Shown piece by piece: positions 16,574 to 39,140 of a stretch of DNA of 64,000 bases. The stretch lies in NCBI GenBank assembly GCA_964396385.1, contig CAYNFH010000003.1, positions 12,178 to 76,177 of the forward strand, written 5' to 3'. Under the pieces are notes generated by a model. That model searched no databases and was not told the DNA's origin. It saw only the letters and a program-made list of their open reading frames with translations. Within the stretch, counting starts at the first letter, position 1. Each line of letters starts with the position of its first letter. The DNA comes from an uncultured Chthonomonadaceae bacterium. Lineage in GTDB: Bacteria; Armatimonadota; Chthonomonadetes; Chthonomonadales; CAJBBX01. The position numbers and the translations under genes were made by a program.

Positions 16574-16577
16574 TCAC

Positions 16578-16702: not shown

Positions 16703-16768
16703 TGTTGTTCCTCTGGTTTGGGTAAGATGGGAGAGAGTAGGACGTACTATTCCGTATGAGGTGTCGGA

Positions 16769-18727: not shown

Positions 18728-18753
18728 GAATTTGGCGCGGCCGCGCCAAATTC
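18728..18753. repeat. Perfect 26-nt palindrome GAATTTGGCGCGG|CCGCGCCAAATTC, followed by GAGACAaTGTCTC (18754-18766)
   Basis: Read directly from the sequence. Member of the AATTTG...CAAATT palindrome family. Confidence 0.85.
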
Positions 18754-18805
18754 GAGACAATGTCTCACTCTGACCGCCCGCCGCCTCCGCACTCGAACAC
18801 ATGCC

Positions 18806-18833
18806 GTCTGTGGTCTGTGGTCTATGGTCTGTA
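18806..18833. repeat. Tandem heptamer block, 4 x GTCTGTG
   Basis: gtctgtg gtctgtg gtctatg gtctgta. Confidence 0.8.
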
Positions 18834-18916: not shown

Positions 18917-18943
18917 CAATTTGACACGCCGCGTGTCAAATTG
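18917..18943. repeat. 27-nt palindrome CAATTTGACACGC-c-GCGTGTCAAATTG
   Basis: Read directly from the sequence. Same terminal motif as the others, with a different covarying core. Confidence 0.85.
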
Positions 18944-22287: not shown

Positions 22288-22306
22288 CGGATTGCCTTCT
22301 CTCCGC

Positions 22307-23191: not shown

Positions 23192-23192
23192 A

Positions 23193-23265
23193 GGGGTATG
23201 GGAGTATAGGAGTGTAGGAGTGTGGGGCAATCACTCCCATACCCCCACACTCCGACGCTCCCACA
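23193..23265. repeat. Intercistronic hairpin built of GGAGT(A/G)T(A/G)G units between the two AKR genes
   Basis: ggggtatgggagtataggagtgtaggagtgtgggg-caatca-ctcccatacccccacactccgacgctcccacac. Confidence 0.7.
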
Positions 23266-23271
23266 CCGTTC

Positions 23272-24282: not shown

Positions 24283-24379
24283 CTGTCCCCTCCCACAGGT
24301 CGCTAAGCAGGGATTCGGGGCGCACCCCGCCCGCCCCTGCCGGAGTAGGCGTGGTGTTGACGGCATGTATGCCCGCTAG

Positions 24380-24385
24380 TATAAT
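24380..24385 (+). promoter_or_regulatory. TATAAT -10 box upstream of 24405..24680
   Basis: gctagTATAATcccgccGAGGAGagacacgATG. A leader with an SD follows the box. Confidence 0.4.
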
Positions 24386-24404
24386 CCCGCCGAGGAGAGA
24401 CACG

Positions 24405-24680
24405 ATGAGCCACACAATCACCCTGCAGATCCCGGATAGCGTCTATCGGCCGTTGGTGGAGAGAGCAGAGCGCGAGGGACGCACGCCGGAGGAGGTCGCC
24501 ACGGACTTGCTGGCGCTTGCTGCCTGTGAGGAGCAGGAGGATCCGCTTCTTCAGCTCGCCGGCGCGCTCGAAGCGGATGTCCCGGATTTGGGGACCAAGC
24601 ACGACCAGTACCTCCGCGAGGAAGCAGACGGCGGCTTAGGCTGCCAGGACAGACCGAATGCGTATGTGCTGACGAGCTGA
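24405..24680 (+). CDS. Small antitoxin-like protein (orphan; no toxin downstream)
   Basis: MSHTITLQIPDSVYRPLVERAEREGRTPEEVATDLL...DPLLQLAGALEADVPDLGTKHDQYL resembles RHH-type antitoxins with a DPLLxLAG tail. Confidence 0.55.
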   Translation: MSHTITLQIPDSVYRPLVERAEREGRTPEEVATDLLALAACEEQEDPLLQLAGALEADVPDLGTKHDQYLREEADGGLGCQDRPNAYVLTS

Positions 24681-24698
24681 TTCAGGGAGGTTATAGAT

Positions 24699-24905
24699 CT
24701 ACGATGGCTTCACTGCCGACTGCCTGCGGGTTTTGGGCCGGCTCGTCCGCACGTCGGTCGGAACCGAGCCATTATGAAGGCCGTCCCCCAGGTCGAGTTT
24801 TCCCTCGCTCTCGAGTCGAGCCAGCTCGTCCAAGTCCGAGTCGGTCTCTGGAATGAGAGTCACGATCTCCTGTCCGTCGATTGCTATTCGGGTCACTCGT
24901 TTCAT
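24699..24905 (-). CDS. Small acidic protein, possible antitoxin/immunity partner of the upstream gene (Phd/YefM-like strand motif)
   Basis: MKRVTRIAIDGQEIVTLIPETDSDLDELARLESEG. Its ATG overlaps the upstream stop by 4 nt. Confidence 0.45.
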   Translation of the reverse strand: MKRVTRIAIDGQEIVTLIPETDSDLDELARLESEGKLDLGDGLHNGSVPTDVRTSRPKTRRQSAVKPS

Positions 24906-25366
24906 CTGGGTTCCTCGCTGAGGACGACATATTCAAACTGTTGGCCGAACCGGCCGTTCCTCCAGCCCGGTCCCTCGTACCATGCGAAGATGCGTACGGC
25001 TGGCACGTTCTCCTCAATGACTCCGTATGGCCCAAACTTCATGGCCATGTCGAGACTGGCCGTGAAGCTCGACAGGATCGAAGGCGTTTCATAGGGAGCA
25101 GCCAGTCCTCTGTACAACCGCACTTGTAGTATACTGCGACGTCGGAGCGCCTCCTGCGTATCCTCGTAGATGCGGCGCACGGTCGCCCTCCAGGGCTTTA
25201 CGTCTCCCGCTTCGATCTGGTACCGGTTACGGGAATAAGCGATTCCGCCGACCCGAAACTCCGCTTGAGCTGCCAACTTGAGGATTACGGAGAGGCGGCT
25301 ACGGCTGTCGTCCGTCCATGCGCCGATCAACTGGCGCCTTCTGGCCTGGAACTCCCGTTGATCCAC
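24902..25366 (-). CDS. Hypothetical 154-aa protein with an R-S-E ADP-ribosyltransferase-like motif pattern (tentative)
   Basis: VRLYRGL ... LSSFTASLD ... GQQFEYVVL resembles the ART signature Arg / S-T-S / Q-x-E followed by hydrophobics. GTG start without a clear SD. Confidence 0.4.
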   Translation of the reverse strand: MDQREFQARRRQLIGAWTDDSRSRLSVILKLAAQAEFRVGGIAYSRNRYQIEAGDVKPWRATVRRIYEDTQEALRRRSILQVRLYRGLAAPYETPSILSSFTASLDMAMKFGPYGVIEENVPAVRIFAWYEGPGWRNGRFGQQFEYVVLSEEPR

Positions 25367-25527
25367 GCAGCCGAATTGGTCTTAGAGCCGCCAGATTCCT
25401 TCCGGCTTGGACAAGCTAAGGAGGACGGCGGCGAAAGCTCCGCCAGAATTGCGGAGGAGGACGCTAGCATGGTAGGAGCCTCTACGCCGCCAAGCGAACG
25501 CTGAATTGAACACTGAGAGGGCATTAA

Positions 25528-27159
25528 GTGGCGAGGCATTCTATGCACCAGAACGAGGAGATTCCGTGCGCGCGGTCTGAGCCGGCGGACATAGAGGACG
25601 TGGCCATCTCTCGGCTGCTGGAGTACGCGGGAGAGCTCGCCAGGTGGCAGCATCGGGGCGAAAGCGAAACCTGTTCGGAGCTGCCGAGCCGTATAGGGTC
25701 GTTGCTGGACCTCGTGTCGCGGGACGGGGAGTTGGCGGAGTTCCTGGAGACCCTGCCGCAGTCGCTGGGCAGCGGTCTGCTCTTGCCTACCATCTTCCGC
25801 AGCCTGTTTCCCGCGGAGCCACAGCCCATCGCCGTTCCGCGTATGGAGAGTGGACCGCCAAGACTGGCCCCGCGGGAGTTGCAGATTCTCGGGGCAATCG
25901 CGGAGGGGAAGTCCAGGAATCAGATAGCGCGCGAGCTTTCGCTCGAGGTGAGCACAGTGAGGTCCTACTTCGATAGTATCTTCGAAAAGCTGGAGGCGAC
26001 GAGCTCGCTGGATGCTGCTGCGCGAGGCGCGGCACTGGGACTTGTGCCGTTCGACCCCGTTGACCTCGTCCGGCCGGTGGCGGACGGGAGGGCGCTGGAC
26101 TTCAACCATTTCAGCTATCTCCTCGTTGGGAGAGAAACTCTGCTCCAGGGAGGAGAAGACACGGTGAGCCTATGGCGGCAGCGGCTTGCCGCCGTCGGGC
26201 TGTTGCTCTTCTTATTTGCCGCCGCACTCCAATACCCGCCAGTTTCACGCGCCGCCATGGCAGTAACGTCACATCAGCACGGCTACGTGCTCGAATACAC
26301 GCCGGAGGGCAAACTTGTTCACCGCTTCAACGCAGGTGGGCAACTGCGATATCCTCGGGCGCTGGCCGTCTGCCCACCTGCCGGTGAATATCACGGATTC
26401 GCAAAGGGAAACCTCTTCGTCCTCGACAACGGCAGCGGCCCGGATTGGCTCAACCCGAGCAGCGTTACGGAAACCACCACAACCGGAGAGTACGTCCGCT
26501 CATTCACGGGAGGGCGATATCTCAGTAACAGGCTGACTGCGGACTTTGGCCTGGCGTTCACCGCGGACGGCCGCTTATTAGCTGCCAGTGGGGACATGAC
26601 CGACGCGATCCTTGAGTTCACCGAAGGCGGCAGGGCGGTCCGCCGGTTTGCCAACCTGGTTCCGTACGGCGGAGTTGCCACGGACCGGAAGGGGCACGTC
26701 TACGTGGCCGGAGGACGATGGGACCGGAATCCGGTGCACGTATTTAGCGCCGGGGGCCGGCTCTTGAGGACCGTGGGCAACGGCGACGGCAGTGCCATTG
26801 GGGTCGGAGCCTACAAAGGCGTTGCCGTAGACCACCTGGGTAGCCTCTACGTCGCGAATCTGGAGAACCGGGTTATTGAAGTATACGATGGGAGAGGCCG
26901 GCTCACGCGCTGCATTGGCCAAGGTCTGCTCCACTATCCCTCCTACATGGCGCTCAGCAGTGATGGGCGGCTGTACGTCCTGGATGACGCCAGTGTCGAT
27001 GGAGCTGAGTTACACAATACTGGCCGGCGGACCGTTCAGGTCTTCGACAGCTCAGGTGGCGGCTTTCTCTACTCGTTCACTGCTCCTCCCCGCATCCGAT
27101 TCACCAACCTCACCATCGGTCCCACCGGAAACCTCCTCATAGCGGGATACCGGGAGTAG
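25528..27159 (+). CDS. Membrane-anchored LuxR-HTH / TM / NHL-like beta-propeller regulator (paralog of 9068..10750)
   Basis: HTH is LAPRELQILGAIAEGKSRNQIARELSLEVSTVRSYFDSIFEKL. TM segment is LAAVGLLLFLFAAAL. The block LTADFGLAFTADGRLLAASG aligns with LTADSSLAFAADGRLLATTG of the paralog. Confidence 0.75.
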   Translation: MARHSMHQNEEIPCARSEPADIEDVAISRLLEYAGELARWQHRGESETCSELPSRIGSLLDLVSRDGELAEFLETLPQSLGSGLLLPTIFRSLFPAEPQPIAVPRMESGPPRLAPRELQILGAIAEGKSRNQIARELSLEVSTVRSYFDSIFEKLEATSSLDAAARGAALGLVPFDPVDLVRPVADGRALDFNHFSYLLVGRETLLQGGEDTVSLWRQRLAAVGLLLFLFAAALQYPPVSRAAMAVTSHQHGYVLEYTPEGKLVHRFNAGGQLRYPRALAVCPPAGEYHGFAKGNLFVLDNGSGPDWLNPSSVTETTTTGEYVRSFTGGRYLSNRLTADFGLAFTADGRLLAASGDMTDAILEFTEGGRAVRRFANLVPYGGVATDRKGHVYVAGGRWDRNPVHVFSAGGRLLRTVGNGDGSAIGVGAYKGVAVDHLGSLYVANLENRVIEVYDGRGRLTRCIGQGLLHYPSYMALSSDGRLYVLDDASVDGAELHNTGRRTVQVFDSSGGGFLYSFTAPPRIRFTNLTIGPTGNLLIAGYRE

Positions 27160-27275
27160 AGACACTCCACCCTGCCACAGTTGTCTACCAGCCTCAATAC
27201 GGAATAGACGGGCCAGTTGCCTGCCTCTTATGCTGATTCGTCAACTACTGATCTCAGCAAAGGAGGAAGTCTCAC

Positions 27276-28565
27276 ATGCGTACAACCCTTTGGAATCTCG
27301 CTCGCTGCGTCCTGCTGGTTGCGGTTGTGTCCATGGCGCAATCCCCCTGCTGCCTGTCACAAGCGGCTGTTGCCTGGGGAGGCAACGTAAACGGCCAGCT
27401 CGGGGATGGAACCAACACGAACCGAAGCGCTCCGGTCCAGGTGAGGGATCCCGGCGATCCCACCGGCTTCCTGCAGAACGCCGCCGCCATTAGCTGCTAC
27501 GGGTTCCACAGCGTGGCGCTCAGGACGGACGGCACCGTTTGGACGTGGGGGCTCAACAACTACGGCCAGCTCGGAGACGGAACTTCGACGGATCGGAATA
27601 CGCCGGTGCAGGTAATCGACCCGACCGATCCAACGGGCTTCCTGCAAAACGTGGTGAGCGTGGCGACGGGCGGCTACCATACGCTCGTCGTGAAGGCGGA
27701 CGGCACCGTGTGGGCCTGGGGCAACAATAACTTTGGCCAGCTAGGCAACGGCACGACGGTCAACAGCAGGGTCCCTGTGCGGGTACTGGATTCCGCCGAC
27801 CCGTCTGGCTTCCTGCAGAATGTGTCCGGAGTAGCCGGTGGCGACGCGCAGACGGTAGCCGTAAAGACAGATGGGACCGTGTGGACCTGGGGAGCCAATA
27901 GCTATGGTCAGTTGGGAGACGGCACCACCACGGGCCGCTCCACACCGGTGCAGGTGAAGGACCTCAACGATCCATCCGGGTACCTCCAGAACGCGGTGTA
28001 CGTCCAGGGTGGGGCGTATCAGGCACTCGCTCTGCTGGCAGACGGGACGGTCCGCGGATGGGGCAGGAACGATGAGGGCGAGCTGGGAGACGGCACCTTC
28101 ATGAGCCGGACCTCCGCCGTACAGACGATAGACCCGACAGACCCCAGCGGATTCCTGCAAAACGTATCGGTGCTCTCGGGAGGGGCGTCCCACGGCGTTG
28201 TGCTGAAGGGAGACGGCACCGTCTGGGCGTGGGGCCACAATGGACTGGGCCAGCTCGGCGATGGCACTACCACCTTCCGCAACTCCCCCGTGCAGGTTAA
28301 GGATCCAGGCGATCCAAGCGGGTTTATTCAGGGCGTCGCGAACCTAAACGTGGCGGGTGCGGGCTACCACAGCCTTGCCATCAAGGCAGATGGGACGGCC
28401 TGGGCATGGGGAGACAACGACCACGGTCAGCTTGGGGATGGCACCACTGCCAACCGGCCCACTCCTGTTCAGGTCACGAACCCCTCGGACCCGACCGGAT
28501 TCCTTCAGGGTGTGACGGCTCTGGCAGAGGGCGTCTACCACAACCTGGGTACCGTTACACCTTAG
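27276..28565 (+). CDS. Secreted RCC1-repeat beta-propeller protein
   Basis: Signal peptide, then seven repeats of the form WGxNxxGQLGDGTxxxRxxPVQV. Confidence 0.88.
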   Translation: MRTTLWNLARCVLLVAVVSMAQSPCCLSQAAVAWGGNVNGQLGDGTNTNRSAPVQVRDPGDPTGFLQNAAAISCYGFHSVALRTDGTVWTWGLNNYGQLGDGTSTDRNTPVQVIDPTDPTGFLQNVVSVATGGYHTLVVKADGTVWAWGNNNFGQLGNGTTVNSRVPVRVLDSADPSGFLQNVSGVAGGDAQTVAVKTDGTVWTWGANSYGQLGDGTTTGRSTPVQVKDLNDPSGYLQNAVYVQGGAYQALALLADGTVRGWGRNDEGELGDGTFMSRTSAVQTIDPTDPSGFLQNVSVLSGGASHGVVLKGDGTVWAWGHNGLGQLGDGTTTFRNSPVQVKDPGDPSGFIQGVANLNVAGAGYHSLAIKADGTAWAWGDNDHGQLGDGTTANRPTPVQVTNPSDPTGFLQGVTALAEGVYHNLGTVTP

Positions 28566-28639
28566 ATGGATCCACTCAGCCGGCGCCGGGCCATGAGAAT
28601 CTCGCGGCCCCCCCTGTCTTGCGGGGAGGCCCAACTCTG

Positions 28640-28780
28640 TCAGGCCGCTAACACGCTTGCGGGGTCTATGGCGGTTACGGCGGGATAGCGGGTGAAGTCA
28701 GTAGTATTGAAGGTGAGCAGGTAGGTGACGCCGTAAACGAGCAGCACGGCCACCAGACGGGCGTCGTGCGCCTGCCGTGG
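28640..28780 (-). pseudogene. C-terminal remnant of a PIN-domain (VapC) toxin
   Basis: My translation PRQAHDARLVAVLLVYGVTYLLTFNTTDFTRYPAVTAIDPASVLAA* matches the conserved VapC tail (HDAxIVA...LLTFNxxDFxR). It lies in frame immediately after the TAG of the dehydrogenase gene. Confidence 0.55.
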
Positions 28781-29866
28781 CTAGGACTGGATTCCGGCGA
28801 CTTCGGTGCAGGAGCGCTGGGAGGAGGAGGAATCCTCCTCGTGGTGGGTGGCGCCATCGGCGCCCACGCGATGGGTGGGTTTGCCCCGTCGGAACGCGCG
28901 GATATTGCCGATGGTGGTGTCCAGGATGCGCTGGATGGCCTCCACGCTGTCCGAAGCGATGTGTGGGGTGATCAGCACGTCCGGGCGGCGCAGGAGGATC
29001 TGGTTGCGCAGAGCCACCTCCAGACTGTGCCGGCTCGCCTCCGGGTTGCCGAGGAGCTGCTGCTCGTCGCTCAGGTTCTCCTCTCCTTCCAGAACGTCCA
29101 GGCCCGCGCCGGCCAGGGTGCCCCTGTCCAGAGCCTCCACGAGGGCGGCCGAATCCACCAGCGCACCGCGCGCAGTGTTGATGAGGAGAGCGCCTCGCTT
29201 GAACAGCTCAATGTTGTGGAAGCCAATGAGGTGATGGCTCTCCGGCGTGAGCGAGGCATGGAGTGTAACGATGTCCGAGCGGCGAAGCAGGTCCTCCAGT
29301 GCGGTGTAGGTGAACCCCGCGCGCCGGGCCAGGTCCGGCTTCTGAACCGGATCCGACGCAAGCACCCCCATCCCGAACCCCTGCGCCATCTGAACTACGA
29401 ACCGGCCGATGTGCCCCACCCCAACCACGCCCAGGGTCTTGCCACGCAGGTCGAAGCCGCGGAGACCTTCCATGGAGAAGTCACCTGCGCTGGTGCGCGT
29501 ATTGGCCGTACAGATATTGCGGGAAAGCGCCAGGATGAGCGCAAAGGTGTGCTCGGCCACGGTATTCTCGCCGTAGCTCGGCACGTTGCTCACCACGATG
29601 CCTCGCTGGGCGGCGGCCGCCACGTCGATATGCTCGAACCCCGTGGAGCGGGTAGCGATCAGCTTCAGATTGGGTAGCGACTCGATCACGCCGGCCGACA
29701 CTCTGGAGGTGACCGAGGTAGACAGAACGTCGGCGTGCTGCCCCATATCCGGAACCTGAGCCGGCCGCGTTAGGGGCTCCTCGAAGCTGTGGATGACTTC
29801 ATCCTGGAGGTGATTCTCCAGGTAGCGACGCTTCTCGGCGTCTGCCTCAAACGCATAGATACTCAT
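28781..29866 (-). CDS. D-isomer-specific 2-hydroxyacid dehydrogenase (NAD-binding)
   Basis: Start MSIYAFE at 29866. Carries GKTLGVVGVGHIGRFV (the GxGxxG motif), INTARGALVD and ITPHIAS. A non-conserved tail of about 30 aa follows. Confidence 0.88.
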   Translation of the reverse strand: MSIYAFEADAEKRRYLENHLQDEVIHSFEEPLTRPAQVPDMGQHADVLSTSVTSRVSAGVIESLPNLKLIATRSTGFEHIDVAAAAQRGIVVSNVPSYGENTVAEHTFALILALSRNICTANTRTSAGDFSMEGLRGFDLRGKTLGVVGVGHIGRFVVQMAQGFGMGVLASDPVQKPDLARRAGFTYTALEDLLRRSDIVTLHASLTPESHHLIGFHNIELFKRGALLINTARGALVDSAALVEALDRGTLAGAGLDVLEGEENLSDEQQLLGNPEASRHSLEVALRNQILLRRPDVLITPHIASDSVEAIQRILDTTIGNIRAFRRGKPTHRVGADGATHHEEDSSSSQRSCTEVAGIQS

Positions 29867-29897
29867 CTGCGCACATTCTGCCGGGCTGCCGCTGGAG

Positions 29898-30290
29898 CTA
29901 GTCCAGCGCCTGGGTTTGGGAAGGAGAAGTGGTGGGCCGTGGCGGCGTAAAGTCCACCCCGGCGGGCCTCCGCGCCCTGCGGGCCGCCTGCTCCTCGGTC
30001 GGGAGCTCGCCCCTGGCAATGGCGTCCCGAACGGCCTGCGCAATGCGTTCGGCTATCTCATGCAGGCGGGCATGGCGCAGCCACTCCGTATCGAGCGGCG
30101 CATCCCCGGGATAGAAGTACGTGTAGCCGTTGGCGACGTTGCGGAACGCGATGCAGGACGGCGTGCGGGAAGACGAGCTGTGCAGGATACGGGCGTGCTC
30201 GATGATGCGCCGCACGTGATCGTCCCGGCCCCTCAATGTCTCCGCGGCCACGGTCATCACCTGATTCAGCTTGTCCCGAAGCGCCTCCAT
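29898..30290 (-). CDS. Hypothetical protein
   Basis: Start MEALRDKLNQVMTVAAETL at 30290. The 24-aa upstream extension in the track is translated hairpin repeat. Confidence 0.5.
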   Translation of the reverse strand: MEALRDKLNQVMTVAAETLRGRDDHVRRIIEHARILHSSSSRTPSCIAFRNVANGYTYFYPGDAPLDTEWLRHARLHEIAERIAQAVRDAIARGELPTEEQAARRARRPAGVDFTPPRPTTSPSQTQALD

Positions 30291-30313
30291 CGGTACTGCC
30301 CAGCCCCCAATCA

Positions 30314-30378
30314 AAGGATGAAGGATGAGGGATGAGGGATGAATCCGGAATTCATCCTTCATCCTTCATCCCTCATCC
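30314..30378. repeat. Intercistronic hairpin built of GGATGA(A/G)-type units with a GAATCCGGAATTC loop
   Basis: aaggatgaaggatgagggatgagggatgaat-ccgg-attcatccttcatccttcatccctcatcc. Confidence 0.75.
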
Positions 30379-30424
30379 GTTGTCCATGAGTATGGCGTTG
30401 AACGTGGCCTTTCGGTTCCCCGAT

Positions 30425-31516
30425 TCAGCGGCCAACGCCGAGCATTTCCGTCCGGCCGCAGCACGCCGCCATCCACTCGCGGACCGGGAAGGTTACCACC
30501 GCCCGGGCGCCGCCTCCGGATGCATTCTCCCACGCGATCTGGCCCTTCAGGTCCCAGGCTGTGAGGCTCTGGATGAGCTCCATGCCCGTGTGCCCGGCCC
30601 GGCCTGGCTGGAACCCTTCCGGTAGGCCTCGTCCGTGGTCCCGCACCTCCAGCTCGGCGGTTTCTCCGTGCAGCAGGAGGGATAGCTCGATGTCACCCTC
30701 GCCGTGCTTGGCAGCGTTGCTGATGAGCTCGGTGGCAAGCACGATGAGGGAGGTCACCTGGCGAATAGGAAGCAGGAAATCGTCCGCCGTTAACCGGAGC
30801 TCCCGTTCACCAACCACGGAGCGGGTGAGCGGCAGCAGGTCCTGCAGCGCGGTCTTCGCGCTCATCGCTTCGATGTCGCCGTTCTGCTTGGCCTCCCGGG
30901 TGAGCACCTCGTGGAGGGCGGCGAGGGAGCGGATGTGCTGGCTCAGCCGCTTGAGCTCCGCCACGGGTACCGTGTCCCCGTCCTGCATCACCTGCATGTC
31001 CACCAGCGCGGAGATTACCTGGAGGTTGTTCTTCACCCGGTGGTGCGTCTCCGCCATCGCCATTCGGAGCCGCTCCTGGATGCGCTTGCGCTCAGTCACG
31101 TCGAACACCGCGACAAGTCGGGCCTCACGAGAGCCCCAGACGATGGGCTGCGTGGTCAGCTCTACGTCGATGATAGCGCCGTCGCGCGTGCGGTGGATCC
31201 ACTCACCCCCAAAGGGCTGGTTGGCTCGGATGGCGGAGATTGCGTCCAGCAGTCTCCGCGCCTCCTCCGGTGGGCCGATGTCCAGCACCGAAAGCGCAAG
31301 GAACTCGTCCCGCGAGAAGCCGTAGTGGCGCACGGCGGCCTCGTTAACGGCGAGAAAACCGAGAGTCTGGTGGTCCAGCACCCACATGGGCAGCGGGTTG
31401 GCTTCGAAGAGGAGCTGGTACTCGCCATCTGTGGGCCGGGCGGCGCGCTGCTCGTGCAGGAGGGTGGAAAGGACGGCGATGGTGGGGTTGGGAACGGCGA
31501 CAGACGCTTCCGACAT
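30425..31516 (-). CDS. PAS-domain sensor histidine kinase (HisKA_2/HWE-like)
   Basis: PAS region is YQLLFEANPLPMWVLD...FLAVNEAAVRHYGFSRDEF. The H-box is HHRVKNNLQVISALV. The ATPase region includes NAAKHG...DHGRGLP. Confidence 0.85.
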   Translation of the reverse strand: MSEASVAVPNPTIAVLSTLLHEQRAARPTDGEYQLLFEANPLPMWVLDHQTLGFLAVNEAAVRHYGFSRDEFLALSVLDIGPPEEARRLLDAISAIRANQPFGGEWIHRTRDGAIIDVELTTQPIVWGSREARLVAVFDVTERKRIQERLRMAMAETHHRVKNNLQVISALVDMQVMQDGDTVPVAELKRLSQHIRSLAALHEVLTREAKQNGDIEAMSAKTALQDLLPLTRSVVGERELRLTADDFLLPIRQVTSLIVLATELISNAAKHGEGDIELSLLLHGETAELEVRDHGRGLPEGFQPGRAGHTGMELIQSLTAWDLKGQIAWENASGGGARAVVTFPVREWMAACCGRTEMLGVGR

Positions 31517-31795
31517 AGCAGTCTCCCTGAAATCGACGAGATAGAACTGTCCGCTCGTCGGGGAGCGCTCTGACCTATTCACCGCGCGAACGGGGACTCC
31601 TCCGCGACTTACCCCACCGCTTGCCCCTTAGAGAGGGCGAGGCAAAGCAGCGGGCATGGTGAGGTGCCTGACTCCGCGAAACTTGGTTCCGGTTTTCCTG
31701 TCTTAGAGAGAGTATCTATTCGTCGGCCGGGCTTTAGCCGTACGCCGCGCTATCCTGTTAGAAGTACCTGTTATCCGCCTTGGAAGGAGAGGGCC

Positions 31796-32101
31796 ATGAG
31801 GACCACGCGACCGAAAGTCCGGCTGATCATCCGTCGTGGACGCGCGTCTAGGCCGACCGCGGCGATAGCTTACGATACTAAGCGAGTGGAAGCCGTCGAG
31901 CGGCTGATCGCCCTCCTCGAGAGGTCGGCGTTTCCCGCTCGGCCGCACCGCATCGGTGTGCGCCCCGGGCGTGTCGATACGCGGTCGCTTCTGGAGCGGC
32001 TGAGAGCGGCCCGCGCCGTGTACGTGCTCTCCTCCGGCGTGGTGGCGCGCACCGGTCCGGGGGCGTATACGCGGGCTTCGTTGCAGGAGCTGGAAGAGTA
32101 G
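31796..32101 (+). CDS. Small hypothetical protein
   Basis: GGAGAG SD before the ATG at 31796; MRTTRPKVRLIIRRGRASRPTAAIAYDTKRVEAVERLIALLERS... Confidence 0.4.
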   Translation: MRTTRPKVRLIIRRGRASRPTAAIAYDTKRVEAVERLIALLERSAFPARPHRIGVRPGRVDTRSLLERLRAARAVYVLSSGVVARTGPGAYTRASLQELEE

Positions 32102-32305
32102 CCGGTCAGCCACGGCAGCCCGCCGGGACCATTCCCGGCAGGCTGCGAGCGTTTACCAGCGGTGACGGTAGAACCGGTGCGCGTAGAAGCCCCGGCCACG
32201 GTAGTAGCGGCCGCCTCCGATGCCGATGGAAAGGCCGAAGCTGGGCCCATAGTAGACCGGACCGTAGCAGGCCACGTAGCCGCGCGGGCGGCAGGGCGGC
32301 CGGAG

Positions 32306-32320
32306 TGAGACATTGTCTCA
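32306..32320. repeat. Palindrome TGAGACAtTGTCTCA (copy 1; same unit at 32719-32733 and, inverted, at 18754-18766)
   Basis: Read directly from the sequence. Confidence 0.85.
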
Positions 32321-32460
32321 AAATGCAAACCGGCTCGGCAGCAGCGGATCACCGCCCTTCCCCTTCGAGGGGCAGCGTTCGAGCGAGGCGGGACTCCCAC
32401 GAGCACATTTGGCTTTGGCAAGTGGTGAGAGATGGAGCTCGTCGGGGCTCGCGTGGTACC

Positions 32461-32488
32461 CCAATTTGAGGGGATCCCCTCAAATTGG
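32461..32488. repeat. Perfect 28-nt palindrome CCAATTTGAGGGGA|TCCCCTCAAATTGG
   Basis: Read directly from the sequence. Confidence 0.85.
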
Positions 32489-32718
32489 CGCGGAGGGACA
32501 TTGTATTGCGATGATGGCGTTCCACTACAATATGGCACCATGGCCTCAAATTGTAGTGATTTGCTCCCATCGCTGGACGCGCATACCTCACCTGCGACTT
32601 CCGCCTGGACGCCCGTTAGCCCGCATGAGGGTGCCGTGCGGGATGCCCCTATGCCGGGCGCGCTAACTTGCCCAGGCAGACATCCAGTGCCTGGCTCAGA
32701 TCGCCGGGTAGGACCATC

Positions 32719-32733
32719 TGAGACATTGTCTCA
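32719..32733. repeat. Palindrome TGAGACAtTGTCTCA (copy 2), followed by AATTG
   Basis: Read directly from the sequence. Confidence 0.85.
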
Positions 32734-32862
32734 AATTGAAAATAGACGGGATGTTCTGACCGGGAGAAGAGGCGGACGGGTACGGCGCTCTAGCTGTTTT
32801 CAGCAATGGTTGGCATGTGTTGGTCGATGGTTGATGGCCGGATAATTAGGACTGATAGTGCA

Positions 32863-32886
32863 AATTTGAGATCGCGATCTCAAATT
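32863..32886. repeat. Perfect 24-nt palindrome AATTTGAGATCG|CGATCTCAAATT
   Basis: Read directly from the sequence. Confidence 0.85.
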
Positions 32887-33011
32887 GTAAACGCGATGAA
32901 CCTGTTAGACGTTTCCCAGCTTCTGGTGTTGTTCCGGCGGAGGGCAAAGGACAGAAGCGCCCGCCCCGTACAGCGTGCTAGAATAGCGTAGCACTCCTAC
33001 CAGGCAACCCT

Positions 33012-33587
33012 ATGTCCAGACCCGGCCGCTGCATACCTCTCCTATTTGCGCTGGTTTGCGCCTGCACGGCGGCTGCCGCACTGCAGAAAGGGCGAAAGCC
33101 CGCTCCGCCGCCGCTGGCGCGACCGTTTGCGCTGGCGGACGTGGAGGGCAAGCGGCACGCGCTGGCGGACTACCGCGGCAAGCCGGTGGCGCTCCAGTTC
33201 TGGTGCGGGTGCCAGTGGTGCCATGACATGGCCAAGCTGTGGGGACAGGCGCAGCGCTCCGGCGCCCTCCAGGTGGGCGGGCAGATTCCCCCTACGCTGG
33301 TGGTCTTCGCGGGCAGCGCAGATGAGCTGAAGGGCTTTGCGACGGAGACGGGGCTCGATCCCGCCACCACGGTGCTGATGCCGGACCCGGACCTGGCGGT
33401 AGCGCAGCCGTACCACGCCGTTCCCTGCCCGCGCGTGTTTGTGCTGGATTCGGGCGGCCGGATCCGGTATACGAACAACCGCGCGGATGACGCCGCGCGC
33501 AAGGGCCCCGCTGCGCTCATCACTGGCCGCGCAGCGGACGCTCTCCAGGGTTTGAAGCCGCTTGCCGCGAAGGGCAAAAAGGGATGA
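33012..33587 (+). CDS. Secreted thioredoxin-fold (TlpA/redoxin-like) protein with an atypical CGCQWC motif
   Basis: Signal peptide, then FALADVEGKRHALADYRGKPVALQFWCGCQWCHD and PRVFVLDSGGRIRY. Confidence 0.7.
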   Translation: MSRPGRCIPLLFALVCACTAAAALQKGRKPAPPPLARPFALADVEGKRHALADYRGKPVALQFWCGCQWCHDMAKLWGQAQRSGALQVGGQIPPTLVVFAGSADELKGFATETGLDPATTVLMPDPDLAVAQPYHAVPCPRVFVLDSGGRIRYTNNRADDAARKGPAALITGRAADALQGLKPLAAKGKKG

Positions 33588-33655
33588 CCAGCAGAGTACA
33601 CCGCCGGTGCCCGGCGACTAATGTCGCGGGCAACAGGAACAGAAAGTCCACCTTC

Positions 33656-34786
33656 ATGGACTCTGGATTCCGATTCCGCGCAGGCGGACTTCGCGTGTTT
33701 GTTGCCGCCATTTCAATCTCCGCCTTGTCCACGAGTGCCGTCGCCCAGACGTCGCCATCGGGGCTGGTAGTGGAGGGGAAGGACGGCGTGATCGTCTACG
33801 GCCCCACACGGGCCCTGTTCGACTTCGGCACGGTGGACCCGCTCACCACGCCCAGGCTGGAGCACCTGTTCACGCTGAAGAACGGCGGAACGGCGACGCT
33901 CACGGTGGGCAACCTGATGCCTTCCTGCGGGTGCACCACGGCTCTGATCGGATCCGGAGACGAGCAGTCCCGCACGCTGGCGCCGGGCGCGGAGGCGAGC
34001 GTGCGCACGGTCTTAGACGTGGCCCACAGCTTCGGAGGAATGCTGGACAAGTACGTGACGGTCTACCTGCAGGGCCAGAGTGTACCGGCCGCCGTCCTGG
34101 AGCTGCGAGTAAACGTGCGGCCGCTAATCAGCTTCTCCAGACCGCTCATCGGGTTCGGGCAGGTGCCGACGGGGGAAACCAGAAGCATTGACCTTACGGC
34201 TACGGTGGATGCCCGGCTGGCGTCTGGCGGCGTGCTGCCGAAGCTGGCATCGAGCGATCCGGACGTTACGGTAGCCCCCTCCGGCGGGCAGACAGAGACC
34301 CTGCGGGACGGTAAGCCGATGCTCGCGCAGTCCTACACGTGCACGGTCTCCCCGCACGCGCACCTGGGAGTGCTGAACGGAACCGTCTACTTTCTCGTCC
34401 GCCCCTCCACGACGCCCCGCCCGGAGGACGCGCTTGCGAGCTTCTCCGTCCCGTTCAGCGGCGAAGTCACGGGGAAGATCTCTGCTGCTCCCGCCACGGT
34501 CATGTTCGGGGCCGCCGCGGTGGGCCGGGAGGTGACGCGAACGGTGACCATCACAGGCGTCAATCCCGAAGCCGTGCGCGGGCTGCACTTAGGTGACCCC
34601 GGCCCATGGCTTACGGCGAAGATGGAGCCGCCCGCAGCCGACCGGCCGAACCAGGCGGCGCTCCAGGTCACGCTCACCAGCCACGCGCCTACCGGAAGCA
34701 TCCAGTCCCACGTCGACATAACGACTACGGACGGGCAGCGGCTCGTAGTGCCGGTTATCGCCTACGTCGTACCCGTCCCGAAGTGA
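33656..34786 (+). CDS. DUF1573-domain secreted protein
   Basis: Start MDSGFRFRAGGLRVFVAAISISALSTSAVAQ. Hallmark FDFGTVDPLTTPRLEHLFTLKNGGTATLTVGNLMPSCGCTTA. Confidence 0.8.
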   Translation: MDSGFRFRAGGLRVFVAAISISALSTSAVAQTSPSGLVVEGKDGVIVYGPTRALFDFGTVDPLTTPRLEHLFTLKNGGTATLTVGNLMPSCGCTTALIGSGDEQSRTLAPGAEASVRTVLDVAHSFGGMLDKYVTVYLQGQSVPAAVLELRVNVRPLISFSRPLIGFGQVPTGETRSIDLTATVDARLASGGVLPKLASSDPDVTVAPSGGQTETLRDGKPMLAQSYTCTVSPHAHLGVLNGTVYFLVRPSTTPRPEDALASFSVPFSGEVTGKISAAPATVMFGAAAVGREVTRTVTITGVNPEAVRGLHLGDPGPWLTAKMEPPAADRPNQAALQVTLTSHAPTGSIQSHVDITTTDGQRLVVPVIAYVVPVPK

Positions 34787-35367
34787 CCGTAGAACCCGTA
34801 ACCCTCGAAGGGCAGCACGTCCGACTGGAGCCCCTGGCAATGCAGCACCTGGAGGGGCTCTGCGCCGTAGGACTCGACCCGAGCATCTGGACGTGGATGC
34901 CCGCCAACCCGCGCACGCCGGATGAGATGCGGGAGGTGGTTGCCGCGGCCCTGCGGGACCAGTCGGCCGGGGTCGCCCTCCCGTTTGCCACCATTGACCG
35001 AGCGACGGACCGGGTGGTCGGAAGCACGCGCTACCTGGCCATCACCCCCGAGCACCGGCGTGTGGAGATCGGTTGGACCTGGATCGCCCCGGCCTGGCAG
35101 CGCACGGCCATCAACACGGAGGCCAAGTACCTGATGCTCCGGCACGCCTTTGAAAAGCTGGAGTGCGTGCGGGTGGAGCTGAAGACGGACCGGCTGAACG
35201 AGCGGTCCCGGGCGGCTATCCAGCGCATCGGCGCACAGGAGGAAGGCACGCTCCGCAGCCACATGCTGATGCCCGGCGGCCGGCTTCGAGATACCGTATA
35301 CTACAGCATCCTGGCGCCGGAATGGCCCGGCGTGAAGGCGGAGCTGGAGAGAAAGCTGAGGATGTAA
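34783..35367 (+). CDS. GNAT-family N-acetyltransferase (RimJ/RimL-like)
   Basis: GTG overlaps the upstream stop (GTGA). Motifs: LEGQHVRLEPL..., VEIGWTWIAPAWQRTAINTEAKYLMLRHAFEKL and NERSRAAIQRIGAQEEGTLR. Confidence 0.85.
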   Translation: MTVEPVTLEGQHVRLEPLAMQHLEGLCAVGLDPSIWTWMPANPRTPDEMREVVAAALRDQSAGVALPFATIDRATDRVVGSTRYLAITPEHRRVEIGWTWIAPAWQRTAINTEAKYLMLRHAFEKLECVRVELKTDRLNERSRAAIQRIGAQEEGTLRSHMLMPGGRLRDTVYYSILAPEWPGVKAELERKLRM

Positions 35368-35377
35368 ATTGATAAAT

Positions 35378-35425
35378 GGGTAAATGAGTGTACCTGGCGA
35401 GATCCCGGCGTACACTCATTTACCC
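35378..35425. repeat. 16-bp-stem hairpin whose left flank is a TAAATNNN x3 tandem, immediately after the GNAT stop
   Basis: GGGTAAATGAGTGTAC-ctggcgagatcccggc-GTACACTCATTTACCC, preceded by gTAAATtgaTAAATgg. Confidence 0.7.
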
Positions 35426-35471
35426 GTCTACTGCCCCACAGCAGGCGGCAAAAGCGCTGACCCAGACGCCT

Positions 35472-35506
35472 GAAGGGCCGGCTGCAAATCAGGCAGCCGG
35501 CCCTTC
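35472..35506. terminator. 14-bp perfect stem-loop between convergent genes (bidirectional terminator candidate)
   Basis: GAAGGGCCGGCTGC-aaatcag-GCAGCCGGCCCTTC. Confidence 0.6.
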
Positions 35507-35554
35507 AATCTGTTGAGTGTTACCCCACTACGTGGAGCAGTTTCCGCGTACGCC

Positions 35555-35851
35555 TCAGGTGGCCGGCGCAGCGCTGGCTTCGCTCTTAGTCTCCGTTTTG
35601 GACTCCGTCTTGGTCTCGGACTTCGTCTCCGCCTTCGTTTCCGCGGGCTTATCGGCATCCGCCTTCTTGCCGGAGCGCCCGTAGTCGTTCACGTGGAAGC
35701 CCGGCCCCTTGAAGACGATTCCCACCGGGTAGAGCAGCCGGCGCAGCTCGCCGCCACAGCCCTCATGGATGGAGAGCGGATCCTCCGTGATGCGCTGAAA
35801 CACCTCAAACTGCTCGTTGCACTTCGTACACTCGTAACCGTACGTAGGCAA
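35555..35851 (-). CDS. FmdB-family zinc-ribbon protein (CxxC...CxxC)
   Basis: MPTYGYECTKCNEQFEVFQRITEDPLSIHEGCGGELRRL. The C-terminus is a Lys/Glu/Thr-rich repeat tail. Confidence 0.85.
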   Translation of the reverse strand: MPTYGYECTKCNEQFEVFQRITEDPLSIHEGCGGELRRLLYPVGIVFKGPGFHVNDYGRSGKKADADKPAETKAETKSETKTESKTETKSEASAAPAT

Positions 35852-35895
35852 TGCCCCTCACCTCGCTGTACAAGATTTCAACCGTATCTATTATA

Positions 35896-38889
35896 TCACG
35901 GGTGGGTGCGGCCCATACCGAGCGCGGACAATAAGCGCGTGACGTCGGCCACTTCGCGCTTCATACCGAGCTCCTGGAAGACCGAAACCGCCTCAGAATA
36001 TAACTTGTGCGCGGATGTCAAGTCGTCCTGGCCTGCAGCCACCCTTCCCAGGTCGCGCAAGCAGGTCGCTTCACTCTTGCGGCTGCCAATGCGCCGGCTG
36101 ATCTGCAGCGCCGTTTCCAGCGCCTGCCGCGCAGAGGCGTACTCCTTCTGTTCGCCCAAGACCCGGCCCAGCAACTCCAGATTCCATGCGATGCCTGCCT
36201 GATCGCCCAGCTCCACATACAGGTCTCGCGCCTCCTCCAGAGCGGAGCGCGCATTGGCATAGTTGCGCTCCCGAATGGCGACCAATCCCAGGCTGTTTAA
36301 GGACCACGCCTGGCCGGCCAGATTGCTATAGTCGCGGTAAATGGCCAGAGTGCGCAGGAAGGATGAGCGCGCCTTTTCTTCGTCAGCCTCTTCCAGGTAG
36401 GTGTATCCCAAGCAGCCCAGATTCCACGCCTCGTTCATCGCGTCGCCGCGCTTGCGGTGCAGCTTCAGCGCCTCCTCCATCAGTTCCCGTCCCAGGGCCA
36501 CCTGCCCCTGCTCCCGGGCCACATAGCCAAGCCGGCCCAGCGCCTCTGCCTCACCACGGCTATTGCCCAACTTACGGAAGAGCTCCACGGCCTGCTGCAG
36601 GCTCTTGCGCGCCTCTTCGTATCGGCCCTGGTTGGACACAACATCTCCGAGCCACAACAGCGCCTCCGCCTCCCCGTCAGCGCAGCCTGACTCCCGCGCA
36701 AGCGCGAGCGCCATCTGACAGTGGGTCGCGGCATCCTCGAAGTCGCCCTGGCATTGGGCCAGACCACCCAGTCCGCAGAGGGCGGCGATTCGTACGGCCG
36801 GTGGGGCTTGGGTTCCGGAGCGAGAAAGCGCTCGGCCGAGCCGGTCACGCCCCTCCCTTACGTGGCCGCGAAGCCACCAGAACCGATAGAGACTGGAAGC
36901 GAGCCACAGTCCCCACTCGGCCTCTGTTCCGTCCTGTTCGGCCCAGCTCAGGGCGGTCCGAAGGTTGTCATGCTCCTCCTCTAGCCGGTTGAGCCACTCT
37001 TGCTGCTTAGGTCCCATGATCTCGGCGGCGGCACGCTCTCCCACGCTCAAGAAGTAGGCGGCATGATTCCGCGGAATTCCCTCCGCTTCCGTGGGATCGG
37101 CTATGAGTTTGGCCCTGGCGTACTGACGGATGGTGTCCAGCAGCCGGTAGCGTGGCGCTCCGCCGTGAAGGTCGTAGACAACGAGGGACCTGTCGACGAG
37201 CGAGGTGAGTACGTCCTCCGTCTCCGGTACCTCCGTCACTTCACGTACGGCCTGCAGGTCCGCGCCTCCGGAGAACACGCACAGACGCCTTAGAAGCCGC
37301 TGCTCCTCAGCGGTGAGCTGATCGTAGGACCAGTCGATGAGCGCCTCCAGCGATTGGTGGCGCGGCATGGCGGAGCGGCTTCCGCCGCGCAGCAGCCTGA
37401 ACCGGTCACTCAGACCCGCGTGGATGGCTTCGACTGAAAGGGCCCGTATGCGCGCCGCCGCAAGCTCTATGGCGAGCGGGATCCCGTCGAGCTGCCGGCA
37501 GATGTCCGCCACGACCTCCGCGTTAGCGCCGGTCAGCCGCCAATCCGGCTGGACGCGTCGCGCCAGCTCAACAAAGAGGCTCACAGCCGGGTACTCCTGA
37601 ATCACCGCCAGCCAATCCTTGTCTTGCGCTGTTCGAGGTGGCCGGCGTTTTTGTCCGATGGCGACAAACGGACATGGCAGGCCGGGAACGCGCCACGTGA
37701 CCTCGCCGGTGACCCGGAGCGGCTCCCGGCTCGTGGCGAGGATTCGTACCTCCTGGCCGCAGCCCAACAGATCAGACACGACGTTGGCGCAGTCCTGCAG
37801 CAGGTGCTCGCAGTTGTCCAGGACAATCAGCAGTCGCCTGGTTGAAAGAAACTCCTTCAAACTCTCCAGCGGAGACCTGTTGGGCTGCTCCGCTACCCCA
37901 AGAGTCCTCGCGATAACCGGCACAATGAGAGCAGCATCTGCGAGCCCGGAGAGGTCCACGAACCAGGCGCCGTGCGTGTAAGCGGTGGCTGCCGTCTGAG
38001 CGGCGGCAATGGCCAGCCGGGTCTTGCCAATCCCGCCTGTACCGCACAAGGTGACCAGGCGCGCGGAGGAGATGCTGGCGACGATGTCCTTGACGGCCAA
38101 TTCACGGCCGACCAGACCGGTAAGTGGGTGCGGAAGTCGACCAGAGACCGCCGCGGAAAGCCGTGTGAGGGCAGGCACAGATTGGCGGTGCTTGAGACGT
38201 TCGTAAAGCGCGGCCGTCGCCGGGTCCGGAGCGGCATTCAGCTCCCGGTAGAGATAGAGACGAAAGTCCCGGTATACCTGCGCCAGTGCGGCGTGCTCAC
38301 TACGCTCCGCCAGCAGCTCCATCAGGGTGCGGAGCGCCGTCTCCCGGAGCGGGTCCACAGCCATTACACGCCGCAGGTACCCCGTAGCCGCCGAGGTGTC
38401 GCCCTGCGCTGCCTCGTCGGCAGCAAGCCGCTCCAGGGCGGCGACATAGGCCTGGGCGCGCAACTCACGCTCCGGGGTCACCCAGTCCGCGCCGAGGCCG
38501 GCCAGCAGCTCGCCGCGATAGATCTCGACCGCGCGATGAAGTGCCGGAGGATCGCTTCGGCTCACAAGACAGTCGAACTCTGTCACGTCGATCCACGCGC
38601 CGGAGGTTTCCAGGCGGATGCCGCGGATGGTGGGGGAGGATAACCGCGTGGCCTCCTCGCCAAGCGCGTCGCGCAGGTCGGTGAGATTGCGCCGGAGGTT
38701 ATAGCGAGACTGATCTGGGCGGCTGTCCGGCCAGAGCGTCTCGGCTAGCCATTCCCGGTCCAGTACCTGGCCGCCGCGCAGGGCCAGGAGCGCCAGCAAC
38801 TCCTGGCCCGCGCGCGAGCGCAGTGCGCCCATCGGGGCGCCATCAACCTGGACGTCGACCGGACCGAAGAGACGTATCTCAAGGGACAT
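35896..38889 (-). CDS. SARP/AfsR-type regulator: winged-helix BTAD N-terminus, NB-ARC (STAND) ATPase, C-terminal TPR array
   Basis: N-terminus is LEIRLFGPVDVQVDG...ELLALLALRGGQVLDREWLAETLWPD. P-loop is LVTLCGTGGIGKTRLA. Multiple TPR repeats of the form A...LG.V....G.Y..A follow. Start is ATG 38889, with an alternative GTG at 38910. Confidence 0.85.
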   Translation of the reverse strand: MSLEIRLFGPVDVQVDGAPMGALRSRAGQELLALLALRGGQVLDREWLAETLWPDSRPDQSRYNLRRNLTDLRDALGEEATRLSSPTIRGIRLETSGAWIDVTEFDCLVSRSDPPALHRAVEIYRGELLAGLGADWVTPERELRAQAYVAALERLAADEAAQGDTSAATGYLRRVMAVDPLRETALRTLMELLAERSEHAALAQVYRDFRLYLYRELNAAPDPATAALYERLKHRQSVPALTRLSAAVSGRLPHPLTGLVGRELAVKDIVASISSARLVTLCGTGGIGKTRLAIAAAQTAATAYTHGAWFVDLSGLADAALIVPVIARTLGVAEQPNRSPLESLKEFLSTRRLLIVLDNCEHLLQDCANVVSDLLGCGQEVRILATSREPLRVTGEVTWRVPGLPCPFVAIGQKRRPPRTAQDKDWLAVIQEYPAVSLFVELARRVQPDWRLTGANAEVVADICRQLDGIPLAIELAAARIRALSVEAIHAGLSDRFRLLRGGSRSAMPRHQSLEALIDWSYDQLTAEEQRLLRRLCVFSGGADLQAVREVTEVPETEDVLTSLVDRSLVVYDLHGGAPRYRLLDTIRQYARAKLIADPTEAEGIPRNHAAYFLSVGERAAAEIMGPKQQEWLNRLEEEHDNLRTALSWAEQDGTEAEWGLWLASSLYRFWWLRGHVREGRDRLGRALSRSGTQAPPAVRIAALCGLGGLAQCQGDFEDAATHCQMALALARESGCADGEAEALLWLGDVVSNQGRYEEARKSLQQAVELFRKLGNSRGEAEALGRLGYVAREQGQVALGRELMEEALKLHRKRGDAMNEAWNLGCLGYTYLEEADEEKARSSFLRTLAIYRDYSNLAGQAWSLNSLGLVAIRERNYANARSALEEARDLYVELGDQAGIAWNLELLGRVLGEQKEYASARQALETALQISRRIGSRKSEATCLRDLGRVAAGQDDLTSAHKLYSEAVSVFQELGMKREVADVTRLLSALGMGRTHP

Positions 38890-39140
38890 TTCAAGATGAA
38901 CCAGACGCACAATAGATGCGCCCTCGGTCCCGTGAGACGGCAGTGGTGGATGATGGTACCGAAGGGGCGGAACGTCCTCGGCAGCAACGGGCGTGTCACG
39001 ACCGCAGCATTATACGCCGTGTCTGTTCTCTTGATGTCTCCTTAACTCCTCCGTATTAGAACCAGGCGTGTGTACGGGTTGGACGTACGGACCCTGCCTC
39101 CGGCCGAGCTACAATTCCGGTCCAGCTACTCTGGGCTCGG

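Follow-up and report, generated by a model that had tools for sequence, protein, structure and literature searches.

A 64-kb stretch of DNA (65% GC) from an uncultured Chthonomonadaceae bacterium, referred to at its full length as the window, carries eight intergenic tandem arrays with a period of 7-8 nt and at least 3.5 copies, five of which have an inverted partner and form hairpins with it (E1 to E5). The hairpins are real and lie far beyond chance. They are members of a published class of tandem hepta- and octanucleotide repeats and not a new class; the novelty lies in the host lineage, in units of 8 nt, and in the rules that emerged when one unit was traced into metagenomes. The best explanation as a whole, which we hold to be moderately probable, is that these are slippage-prone tandem arrays whose convergent pairs act as 3'-end or intercistronic RNA hairpins.

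Against the eight arrays of the window, 100 dinucleotide-preserving shuffles gave 0.05 on average and never more than one, and ungapped stems of 16 or more matched bp number five against 0.2 in dinucleotide shuffles. Folded as RNA, the five elements reach -28 to -51 kcal/mol, with z scores from -2.8 (E3) to -6.4 (E5), on either strand. A first-pass annotation of the window had proposed a shared hairpin design with tandem-repeat arms and had allowed that chance at this GC content or ordinary terminators might account for it; the shared design is borne out by these counts, and neither reservation holds, the shuffles giving far lower numbers and the stems being followed by no T run. An independent Logan assembly (SRR12266072; 1.2-kb contig L081) matches the window base for base until it breaks inside the repeat, and the window sequence is therefore not one assembler's artefact.

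No inverted repeat of the window is longer than E1 (30312-30382), which has 33-nt arms (30312-30344 and 30350-30382), 88% complementarity and a 5-nt loop. The GGATGAR hairpin reported earlier at 30314-30378 was confirmed and lies within it, the left arm consisting of four GGATGAR units (30314-30343) and the right arm of four YTCATCC units (30351-30378) around a loop of ~5 nt; Tandem Repeats Finder called the arms as 7-nt arrays, AAGGATG x4.3 and TTCATCC x4.0. The gap that holds it (30291-30424) is bounded on one side by the stop of a minus-strand PAS histidine-kinase gene (30425-31582) and on the other by the ATG of a co-directional small ORF (30290, minus), placing E1 ~42-46 nt past the stop and 21 nt ahead of the ATG. 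Its RNA fold is -51.0 kcal/mol on the minus strand and -50.2 on the plus strand (z -5.8 and -6.3). E2 (6341-6402) takes up a convergent gap between an ORF at 5993-6334 (+) and cydB (6406-7452, -), ~6 nt past the stop of the former and ~3 nt from that of the latter, and folds at -42.2 and -37.0 kcal/mol. It had been described as a GACGG hairpin at 6341-6403; the hairpin is present, but its unit is a 7-nt one, GACGGNN x3.4 opposite NNCCGTC x4, and not a pentamer.

E3 and E4 belong to one family, that of the octamer GGGAGTAT, and also have their outer ends in common (CGGTGTGGGAG ... CTCCCACAC). E3 (7464-7520) is one-sided: RTGGGMGT x4 (7464-7497) pairs with a single ACTCCCACAC (7511-7520). It lies inside the cydAB pair, in a 70-nt spacer bounded by the cydA stop (7523) and the cydB ATG (7452), 2 nt from the one and 11 nt from the other, and folds at -28 and -32 kcal/mol (z about -2.8). 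E4 (23190-23267) has repeats on both arms, RTRGGRGT x4-5 against ACYCCSAY x4, and occupies the entire gap between two co-directional minus-strand aldo/keto reductase genes (stop 23272, next ATG 23191-23189), beginning ~4 nt past the stop; the ATG beside it encodes a typical reductase N-terminus, MSLPFTTFGRTGRTVTRLGFGGYP, and the minus-strand fold is -51.2 kcal/mol. In E5 (35365-35430), three 8-nt TAAATNNN units (35365-35386) run into a 16-bp stem (35378-35393 / 35410-35425) that is itself without repeats. The first unit holds the TAA stop of a GNAT gene (34606-35367, +), and downstream of the element lie a second hairpin and then a convergent gene; the fold is -34.3 kcal/mol (z -6.4). Repetition in both arms, part of the original description, is found in E1, E2 and E4, but E3 has one right-hand unit and E5 repeats on the left only. 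The proposal that every locus has its own unit likewise stands for E1, E2 and E5, whose units are distinct, and fails for 7464-7520 and 23190-23267, which share the octamer. An 8-nt loop word, GAATCCGG, had been noted at both 30314-30378 and 7464-7520; it was rejected as a signature, as it occurs eight times in the window against 3.3 expected, which is not significant, and its sharing is therefore probably coincidence.

The remaining three arrays are partnerless, all given on the plus strand: CTACTGA x5 (16538-16572), in a long non-coding stretch, with a unit also present in a metagenomic contig (L146); GTCTGTG x4 (18802-18832); and GGTGTTCA x4.5 (58279-58314), ~30 nt upstream of a tail-tube gene (58344-58823, +). 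In total at least seven different units, three of them octamers, occur within the 64 kb.

All eight arrays are non-coding, between ORFs backed by Pfam or by third-position GC. Each of the five hairpins adjoins a stop codon, starting 2-46 nt past it (the first unit of E5 includes it); gaps between divergent genes hold none of them. All five open with a G-rich, C-poor 5' arm and close with a C-rich 3' arm, and since the palindrome is symmetric this G-arm-first polarity is valid on both strands.

A scan of metagenomes with two exact units of the octamer shared by E3 and E4 (TGGGAGTATGGGAGTAT) gave at least 120 matching contigs; the counts for this family here and below are those among the matches listed. 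The carriers span GC contents of 0.29 to 0.72, with 82 below 0.5 and 22 at 0.6 or above. At least 130 distinct arrays with three or more units were present, most commonly with four (45 arrays), and 55 of them had an inverted partner within 200 nt, leaving 75 of 130 without one. The G-rich arm came first in every one of the 55 pairs. Pairs fill gaps from stop to stop or from stop to next start: 12 of the 55 have stops at both arms (convergent genes), and in a further 29 just one arm has a stop, while past the other arm a start codon often follows at 4-27 nt. The idea that polarity merely reflects two independent 3' arrays of convergent genes is incomplete, because double-stop pairs are few and many pairs lie between co-directional genes. 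Of the 75 single arrays, 35 have the stop of a long ORF no more than 15 nt away on the G-sense side, at distances that cluster at -10 to +12, and six have one on the opposite side.

To judge by a flanking M3 peptidase 90% identical to Puia proteins, carrier L089 belongs to Puia (Chitinophagaceae, Bacteroidota), and its hairpin fills a convergent gap from stop to stop; Puia loci hold up to 12 arrays per 22 kb. Carrier contigs also contain other recurrent heptamer families (AAGCGTT, AAAGCCT, AACAATT). On low-GC Bacteroidota-like contigs a GGGAGTAT array is often directly followed by a different heptamer array that shares its intergenic gap, as at L139 2675-2790, L124 5386-5470, L092 2484-2610 and L132 3260-3330 (units CGCCAAC, GGTCATC, GCGTTAA and GACCGTCAAC). 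A literature search for GGGAGTAT arrays as a string found no paper in the library searched, and no second copy of the E1, E2 or E5 units was found in the about 2.4 Mb of DNA fetched.

Sister loci allowed us to follow how such elements change. Of two Acidobacteriaceae contigs with 89% identity where they align (L022 and L050), one has a GTCGTT unit more than the other, an orthologous locus with 89% identical flanks has 3 units in one carrier and 7 in the other (L156 and L167), and three Puia strains with identical flanks show a 7-nt indel in one arm. Unit numbers are equal between arms in only 10 of the 55 GGGAGTAT pairs and unequal in 45. These observations support the operation of slippage in elements of the same class. 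The first-pass annotation had suggested generation in situ, for example by slippage; the slippage component survives, but a purely local origin of the GGGAGTAT elements is unsupported because the unit is widely shared and a few families are reused across the loci of each genome. Such reuse implies either spread between loci or convergence on particular sequences, and no agent of spread (transposase, terminal repeats or target duplications) was seen in the flanks or among the window ORFs.

Units are not only gained and lost but also replaced, in both arms together. Between two loci with 91-92% identical flanks, every unit of both arms differs, being GGGAGTAT / CCCATACT in L157 and GAGAGTGT / CTCTCACA in L160. 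In the orthologous gap between a peptidase gene and a ThuA gene, compared in Puia relatives whose peptidases are 79-90% identical, the arms hold GGGAGTAT with 4 and 6 units (L089) or 9 and 3 units (L207), GAGAGTGT with 4 and about 2 units (L209-L211), or AAGAGTAT with 5 and 3-4 units (L212-L213), and one relative has a single GGGAGTAT x3 array (L214). One co-directional gap in eight Acidobacteriaceae contains in each case a tandem-heptamer hairpin of 86-109 nt, extending from the stop to ~6 nt before the ATG, built from six different units (GTCGTTG, AGCTYYT, RGTGRYY, AGCNNTC, AGCTKCT and GGCTTCC); left and right arms pair with a mean of -42 kcal/mol within their own genome and -24 kcal/mol across genomes. 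In the neighbouring convergent gap, a tandem-heptamer hairpin is present in L050 only, and its close relative L022 has an unrelated hairpin there. Concerted change of two arms needs either arm-to-arm templating or selection for pairing, and the data, in which arms stay complementary while the unit changes, fit both.

This rapid gain, loss and replacement, together with the unequal arms of most pairs, is what would be expected if the elements were functionless by-products of slippage and hairpin-templated copying that persist where they do least harm, on the 3' side of genes. A proposal by Mrazek (2007), as relayed by PMC4692102 and PMC4679880, that 7 nt perhaps corresponds to the stretch held by the polymerase and thereby favours slippage, points the same way, as do the scarcity of such arrays in Armatimonadota relatives and the dispensability of a cydA-cydB spacer in at least 70 relatives (both described below). 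Neutrality, however, predicts neither the G-first order of 55 of 55 pairs nor the 35-to-6 strand bias at stops, a hairpin persists at one orthologous position in eight species despite turnover of its sequence, and in Xanthomonas the surroundings of the repeats are more conserved than control gaps are (PMC4692102). We regard a functionless by-product as very unlikely.

The same comparisons bear on whether a trans-acting protein or the ribosome recognizes the repeated unit, for example (GGGAGUAU)4 or (GGAUGAR)4, with tandem copies providing avidity. S1, Csp or CsrA-type RNA binders, or an unidentified DNA-binding protein, would be candidates. One octamer recurs in genomes as different as Bacteroidota and the Armatimonadota-like window, orthologous loci keep the unit with flank identities of only 70-92%, each genome prefers a few unit families used at many loci, and strand polarity is strict, all of which a binder would explain; such binders were proposed for TAACTGA repeats by MacGregor (PMC4679880), and for Nostoc a preprint offers the speculation that the heptamers have a binding partner (10.1101/2022.06.06.494920). 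A binder is harder to reconcile with at least seven units in one 64-kb window, with six units among eight Acidobacteriaceae at one orthologous gap, with the poor accessibility of sites inside a long duplex, and with the finding that no candidate is encoded next to the elements. On balance, recognition of the unit in trans seems unlikely to us.

The window elements have close published relatives, and their design is not an undescribed one: both tandem-heptamer hairpins and convergent inverted pairs have been reported (PMC2670836, PMC4692102). Long simple sequence repeats are over-represented in many bacteria, and according to Mrazek (2007), as relayed by PMC4692102 and PMC4679880, those with a 7-nt unit are often the most abundant. 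In filamentous cyanobacteria, repeats termed STRR (short tandemly repeated repetitive), usually of 7 bp, can form hairpins, including one between hupS and hupL; proposed roles are transcript stability, translational coupling and termination, and the function has been called unknown (PMC2670836). An STRR hairpin upstream of hoxW was described by Vioque (1997), as cited in PMC2858038. The window arrays have the head-to-tail organization of this STRR or long simple sequence repeat class (units of 5-11 nt, at least three copies, above chance, non-coding), and resemble STRR in their 7-nt tandem units, several families per genome, and hairpins in operon spacers, as in cydA-cydB. STRR differ in having AT-richer units, in their description from filamentous cyanobacteria, in a definition that leaves octamers outside, and in that no G-arm-first or stop-abutment rule has been reported for them.

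A second match is provided by the GGGAATC and GGGGA(C/T)T heptamers of Xanthomonas and Nostoc (Rehm et al. 2015, PMC4692102), which are over-represented in non-coding DNA and transcribed, prefer four units, lie within 50 bp of stop codons and are rare between divergent genes. They include 70 and 75 convergent, stem-loop-capable array pairs per Xanthomonas genome, and the repeat length differs between X. campestris and X. axonopodis, the single or pair type being kept between close relatives (PMC4692102). Deletion of heptamer repeats in Nostoc is reported in a preprint to affect expression, no mechanism being given (10.1101/2022.06.06.494920). The window elements are alike in their tandem short units, about four in number, their intergenic placement on the sense strand near stops, and their convergent pairs; the window hairpins are, as in that type, convergent G-arm-first pairs near stops with 3-5 units per arm. 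They differ in that Xanthomonas uses one unit genome-wide, whereas the window has its many units, octamers included, several without G3 tracts, in an Armatimonadota-like host. A third relative, TAACTGA, is common to Beggiatoaceae, cyanobacteria and Bacteroidetes (MacGregor 2015, PMC4679880); like the window units it is short, intergenic and shared by distant phyla, in 2-6 copies, and the CTACTGA x5 array is one base away from it. In contrast to the window hairpins, the Beggiatoaceae repeats lie just upstream of start codons, only 1 of 170 forms an inverted pair, and no fold is predicted (PMC4679880).

Four-unit repeats of Xanthomonas and Nostoc form quadruplexes in vitro (PMC4692102), which raises the question whether a four-G-tract arm, folding in DNA or RNA, is the active structure and the complementary arm merely its competitor. 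E3, which reads GGGAGTATGGGAGTATGGGCGTATGGGCG, has four G3 tracts with 5-nt loops; four units are also the commonest number in the GGGAGTAT arrays, and single arrays are G-rich on the sense strand right after stop codons. E3 is, however, the only window hairpin with a G3-4 tract in each unit, E1 having mainly GG runs and E2 and E5 lacking four G3 tracts, and arrays of the same class exist without any G run (CTACTGA, GTCGTTG, AGCTTCT, AAGCGTT). The Puia variants GAGAGTGT and AAGAGTAT lose the G3 tract and keep the architecture, and a 25-33-bp stem would out-compete a quadruplex. We consider a quadruplex as the active structure unlikely.

Several established classes could be set aside. The earlier view that the elements are not classic repetitive extragenic palindromes (REP), bacterial interspersed mosaic elements (BIME) or miniature inverted-repeat transposable elements (MITE) was upheld, with no single conserved palindrome, terminal-repeat or target-duplication signature, or transposase seen. 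REP and BIME are similar in being extragenic palindromes 3' of stop codons and between cistrons. They differ in having a single conserved imperfect palindrome of ~35 nt per genome, without tandem micro-units, and a link to REP-associated tyrosine transposases (RAYT). In the window the units of E1, E2 and E5 are each unique and only E3 and E4 share sequence, which departs from the palindrome of REP, BIME and REP doublets (REPIN), and Pfam detected no RAYT (IS200-like) or other transposase among the ~58 ORFs scanned. A MITE or REPIN origin was rejected in view of this and of a reading of the flanks that showed no target duplication; the fixed length of a MITE is also absent, element length shifting by whole units between relatives. 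Canonical Rho-independent terminators were rejected as well, the stems being present without the T run, and no Rfam 15 family matched anywhere in the window at the gathering score. The GGAG and GGA cores of the G-rich units had prompted a Shine-Dalgarno-like or CsrA-like reading, which was dropped as a general account: many units are without these cores, and Bacteroidota carriers are not known to rely on Shine-Dalgarno pairing.

We favor a mechanism in which whole units are gained and lost by replication slippage and variant units spread through an array, both seen in the sister loci and, by extension, probable for the window, while selection for pairing or template switching between arms would keep the arms complementary. 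Two convergent arrays, G-rich arm first, would then yield a long hairpin. The element would be transcribed as the start of the 3' untranslated region of the upstream gene, its G-rich arm a few bases past the stop, and the G-rich and C-rich arms would pair into the stem of -28 to -51 kcal/mol predicted above. This stem may act as a 3'-end barrier, either by blocking exonucleases or through termination independent of a U-tract. REP elements act as RNA 3' barriers that stabilize upstream mRNA in E. coli operons, and between co-directional genes (cydA-cydB, the two reductases) the stem could similarly serve as an intercistronic stabilizer or decoupler. A 3'-end or intercistronic RNA hairpin is the most likely role, as judged from stop abutment, polarity, stability and the conservation of pairing.

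A number of points weigh against this proposal. The role is inferred from position and structure. The stems lack a following U-tract, and a terminator scan of 22000-36000 called none of the three elements there, its terminator-like sites (8 against 6.5 expected) being unenriched. The spacer between paired GGGAGTAT arms ranges from 8 to 197 nt. No close relative of the window is present in the searched collections, so that unit dynamics are known from sister loci and not from the window loci. The polarity is reversed, relative to every window element and all 55 GGGAGTAT pairs, in an Armatimonadota relative (L082, 13590-13635), where a hairpin, CTCTCCCCTCTCCC...GGGAGAGGGGTTAGGGGTGAGGG, opens with the C-rich arm. 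With three window arrays and 75 of the 130 family arrays partnerless, the hairpin is not the whole story, and retention of the exact octamer across phyla suggests, at the sequence level, a specific constraint beyond a purely structural model. Together, the frequency of partnerless arrays and the conserved octamer make structure alone an incomplete explanation.

A broader account, possible but not probable, would be an unrecognized cross-phylum system of stop-anchored, G-arm-first elements, with arms homogenized by hairpin-templated repair and with families such as GGGAGTAT shared between Bacteroidota and the Armatimonadota-like lineage because a conserved factor or process reads them. U-tract-independent 3'-end formation would be one possibility for such a system; another would be an orientation-specific block to antisense or read-through transcription, which is conceivable because Rho would load well on the C-rich strand.

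The host stands apart from sequenced relatives. Its cydB product is at best 71% identical to proteins named Chthonomonadaceae and 65-67% identical to those of Fimbriimonadaceae, which makes the source an Armatimonadota-like bacterium; no record of the exact protein was found. No close relative was present among species-representative genomes (cydB at best 61%) or in a 5.8-billion-protein collection, where the histidine kinase matched itself and then a protein at 41%. Armatimonadota relatives (L082-L086, cydB 68-71%) have a tight cydA-cydB junction and almost no 7-8-mer arrays; in three of them the gap is 9-10 nt and such arrays are nearly absent from 58 kb. High array density is thus not a general trait of the phylum. 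A gap of 2-20 nt is the usual one in 77 cydAB loci that cover many phyla, which makes the 70-nt hairpin spacer of the window a derived insertion or expansion. The longest cydA ORF (7523-9466, -) encodes 647 aa, with the Pfam domain starting at residue 203 and relatives of 458-473 aa, and translation probably begins some 200 codons downstream of that ORF's first start codon. The cydA-cydB spacers of several Acidobacteriaceae (L016, L048, L060 and L077) share an element, GGCTTTAGCCCC(T/A)GAGG, just before position 10001 of the locus (about 5900 in L060), which looks like a different dispersed intergenic repeat family; the L048 spacer also holds three tandem copies of a ~37-nt unit.

The window has further features of interest. 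The CTACTGA array lies in a 340-nt non-coding region (16429-16768) upstream of a BlaI/penicillinase-repressor-type gene (16769-17152), which has no Rfam match and also contains a terminator-like hairpin (16494-16517), GCCTCNC x3 and an inverted repeat, CCGTTTAAGGGG...CCCCTTAAACGG (16632-16682). A second dispersed palindrome family, perfect AATTTG-N12/13-CAAATT, occurs four times against 0.00 expected, always intergenic (18729-18752, 18918-18942, 32463-32486 and 32863-32886, with half-sites near 32546 and 32730); its outer CAATTTG/CAAATTG is conserved and its center variable and G+C-rich, and a GAGACAATGTCTC palindrome lies beside two of the copies (about 18760 and about 32720). The palindromes may represent operators or a further class of repeat. 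Positions 46537-64000 are taken up by an extracellular contractile injection system (eCIS) cluster, with a sheath, two gp19-type tubes, Pvc16_N, an AAA ATPase, eCIS_core and CIS_tube-LysM, and with the GGTGTTCA x4.5 array inside it; a 753-aa protein of the cluster (52651-54912) ends in an SsdA-type single-strand DNA deaminase toxin domain. The sole hit of the tRNA scan, an ARAGORN tRNA-Ser (anticodon ACT) at 56445-56529 (-), lies inside the eCIS_core ORF and is probably a false positive. At 39915-45741 two caspase (Peptidase_C14) plus DUF4384 genes flank an NlpC/P60 plus LysM gene, all of them large and adjacent, and a 1004-aa BTAD/AAA/TPR regulator (35896-38910) adjoins the trio.

What tandem heptamers do in bacteria has been a question since their first description in cyanobacteria, and their role is still called unknown (PMC2670836, PMC4692102, PMC4679880). 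With the window the class gains a further phylum and units of eight bases, and the comparison yields testable rules: G-arm-first polarity, which holds for 55 of 55 pairs among the matches listed, abutment of stops on the sense strand, whole-unit indels, and concerted change of two arms. Such repeats also break short-read assemblies, as the Logan contig that ends inside one illustrates. If the elements do set mRNA 3' ends or insulate neighboring genes, they would constitute a common, unannotated signal for termination or stability in GC-rich bacteria and soil bacteria without canonical terminators.

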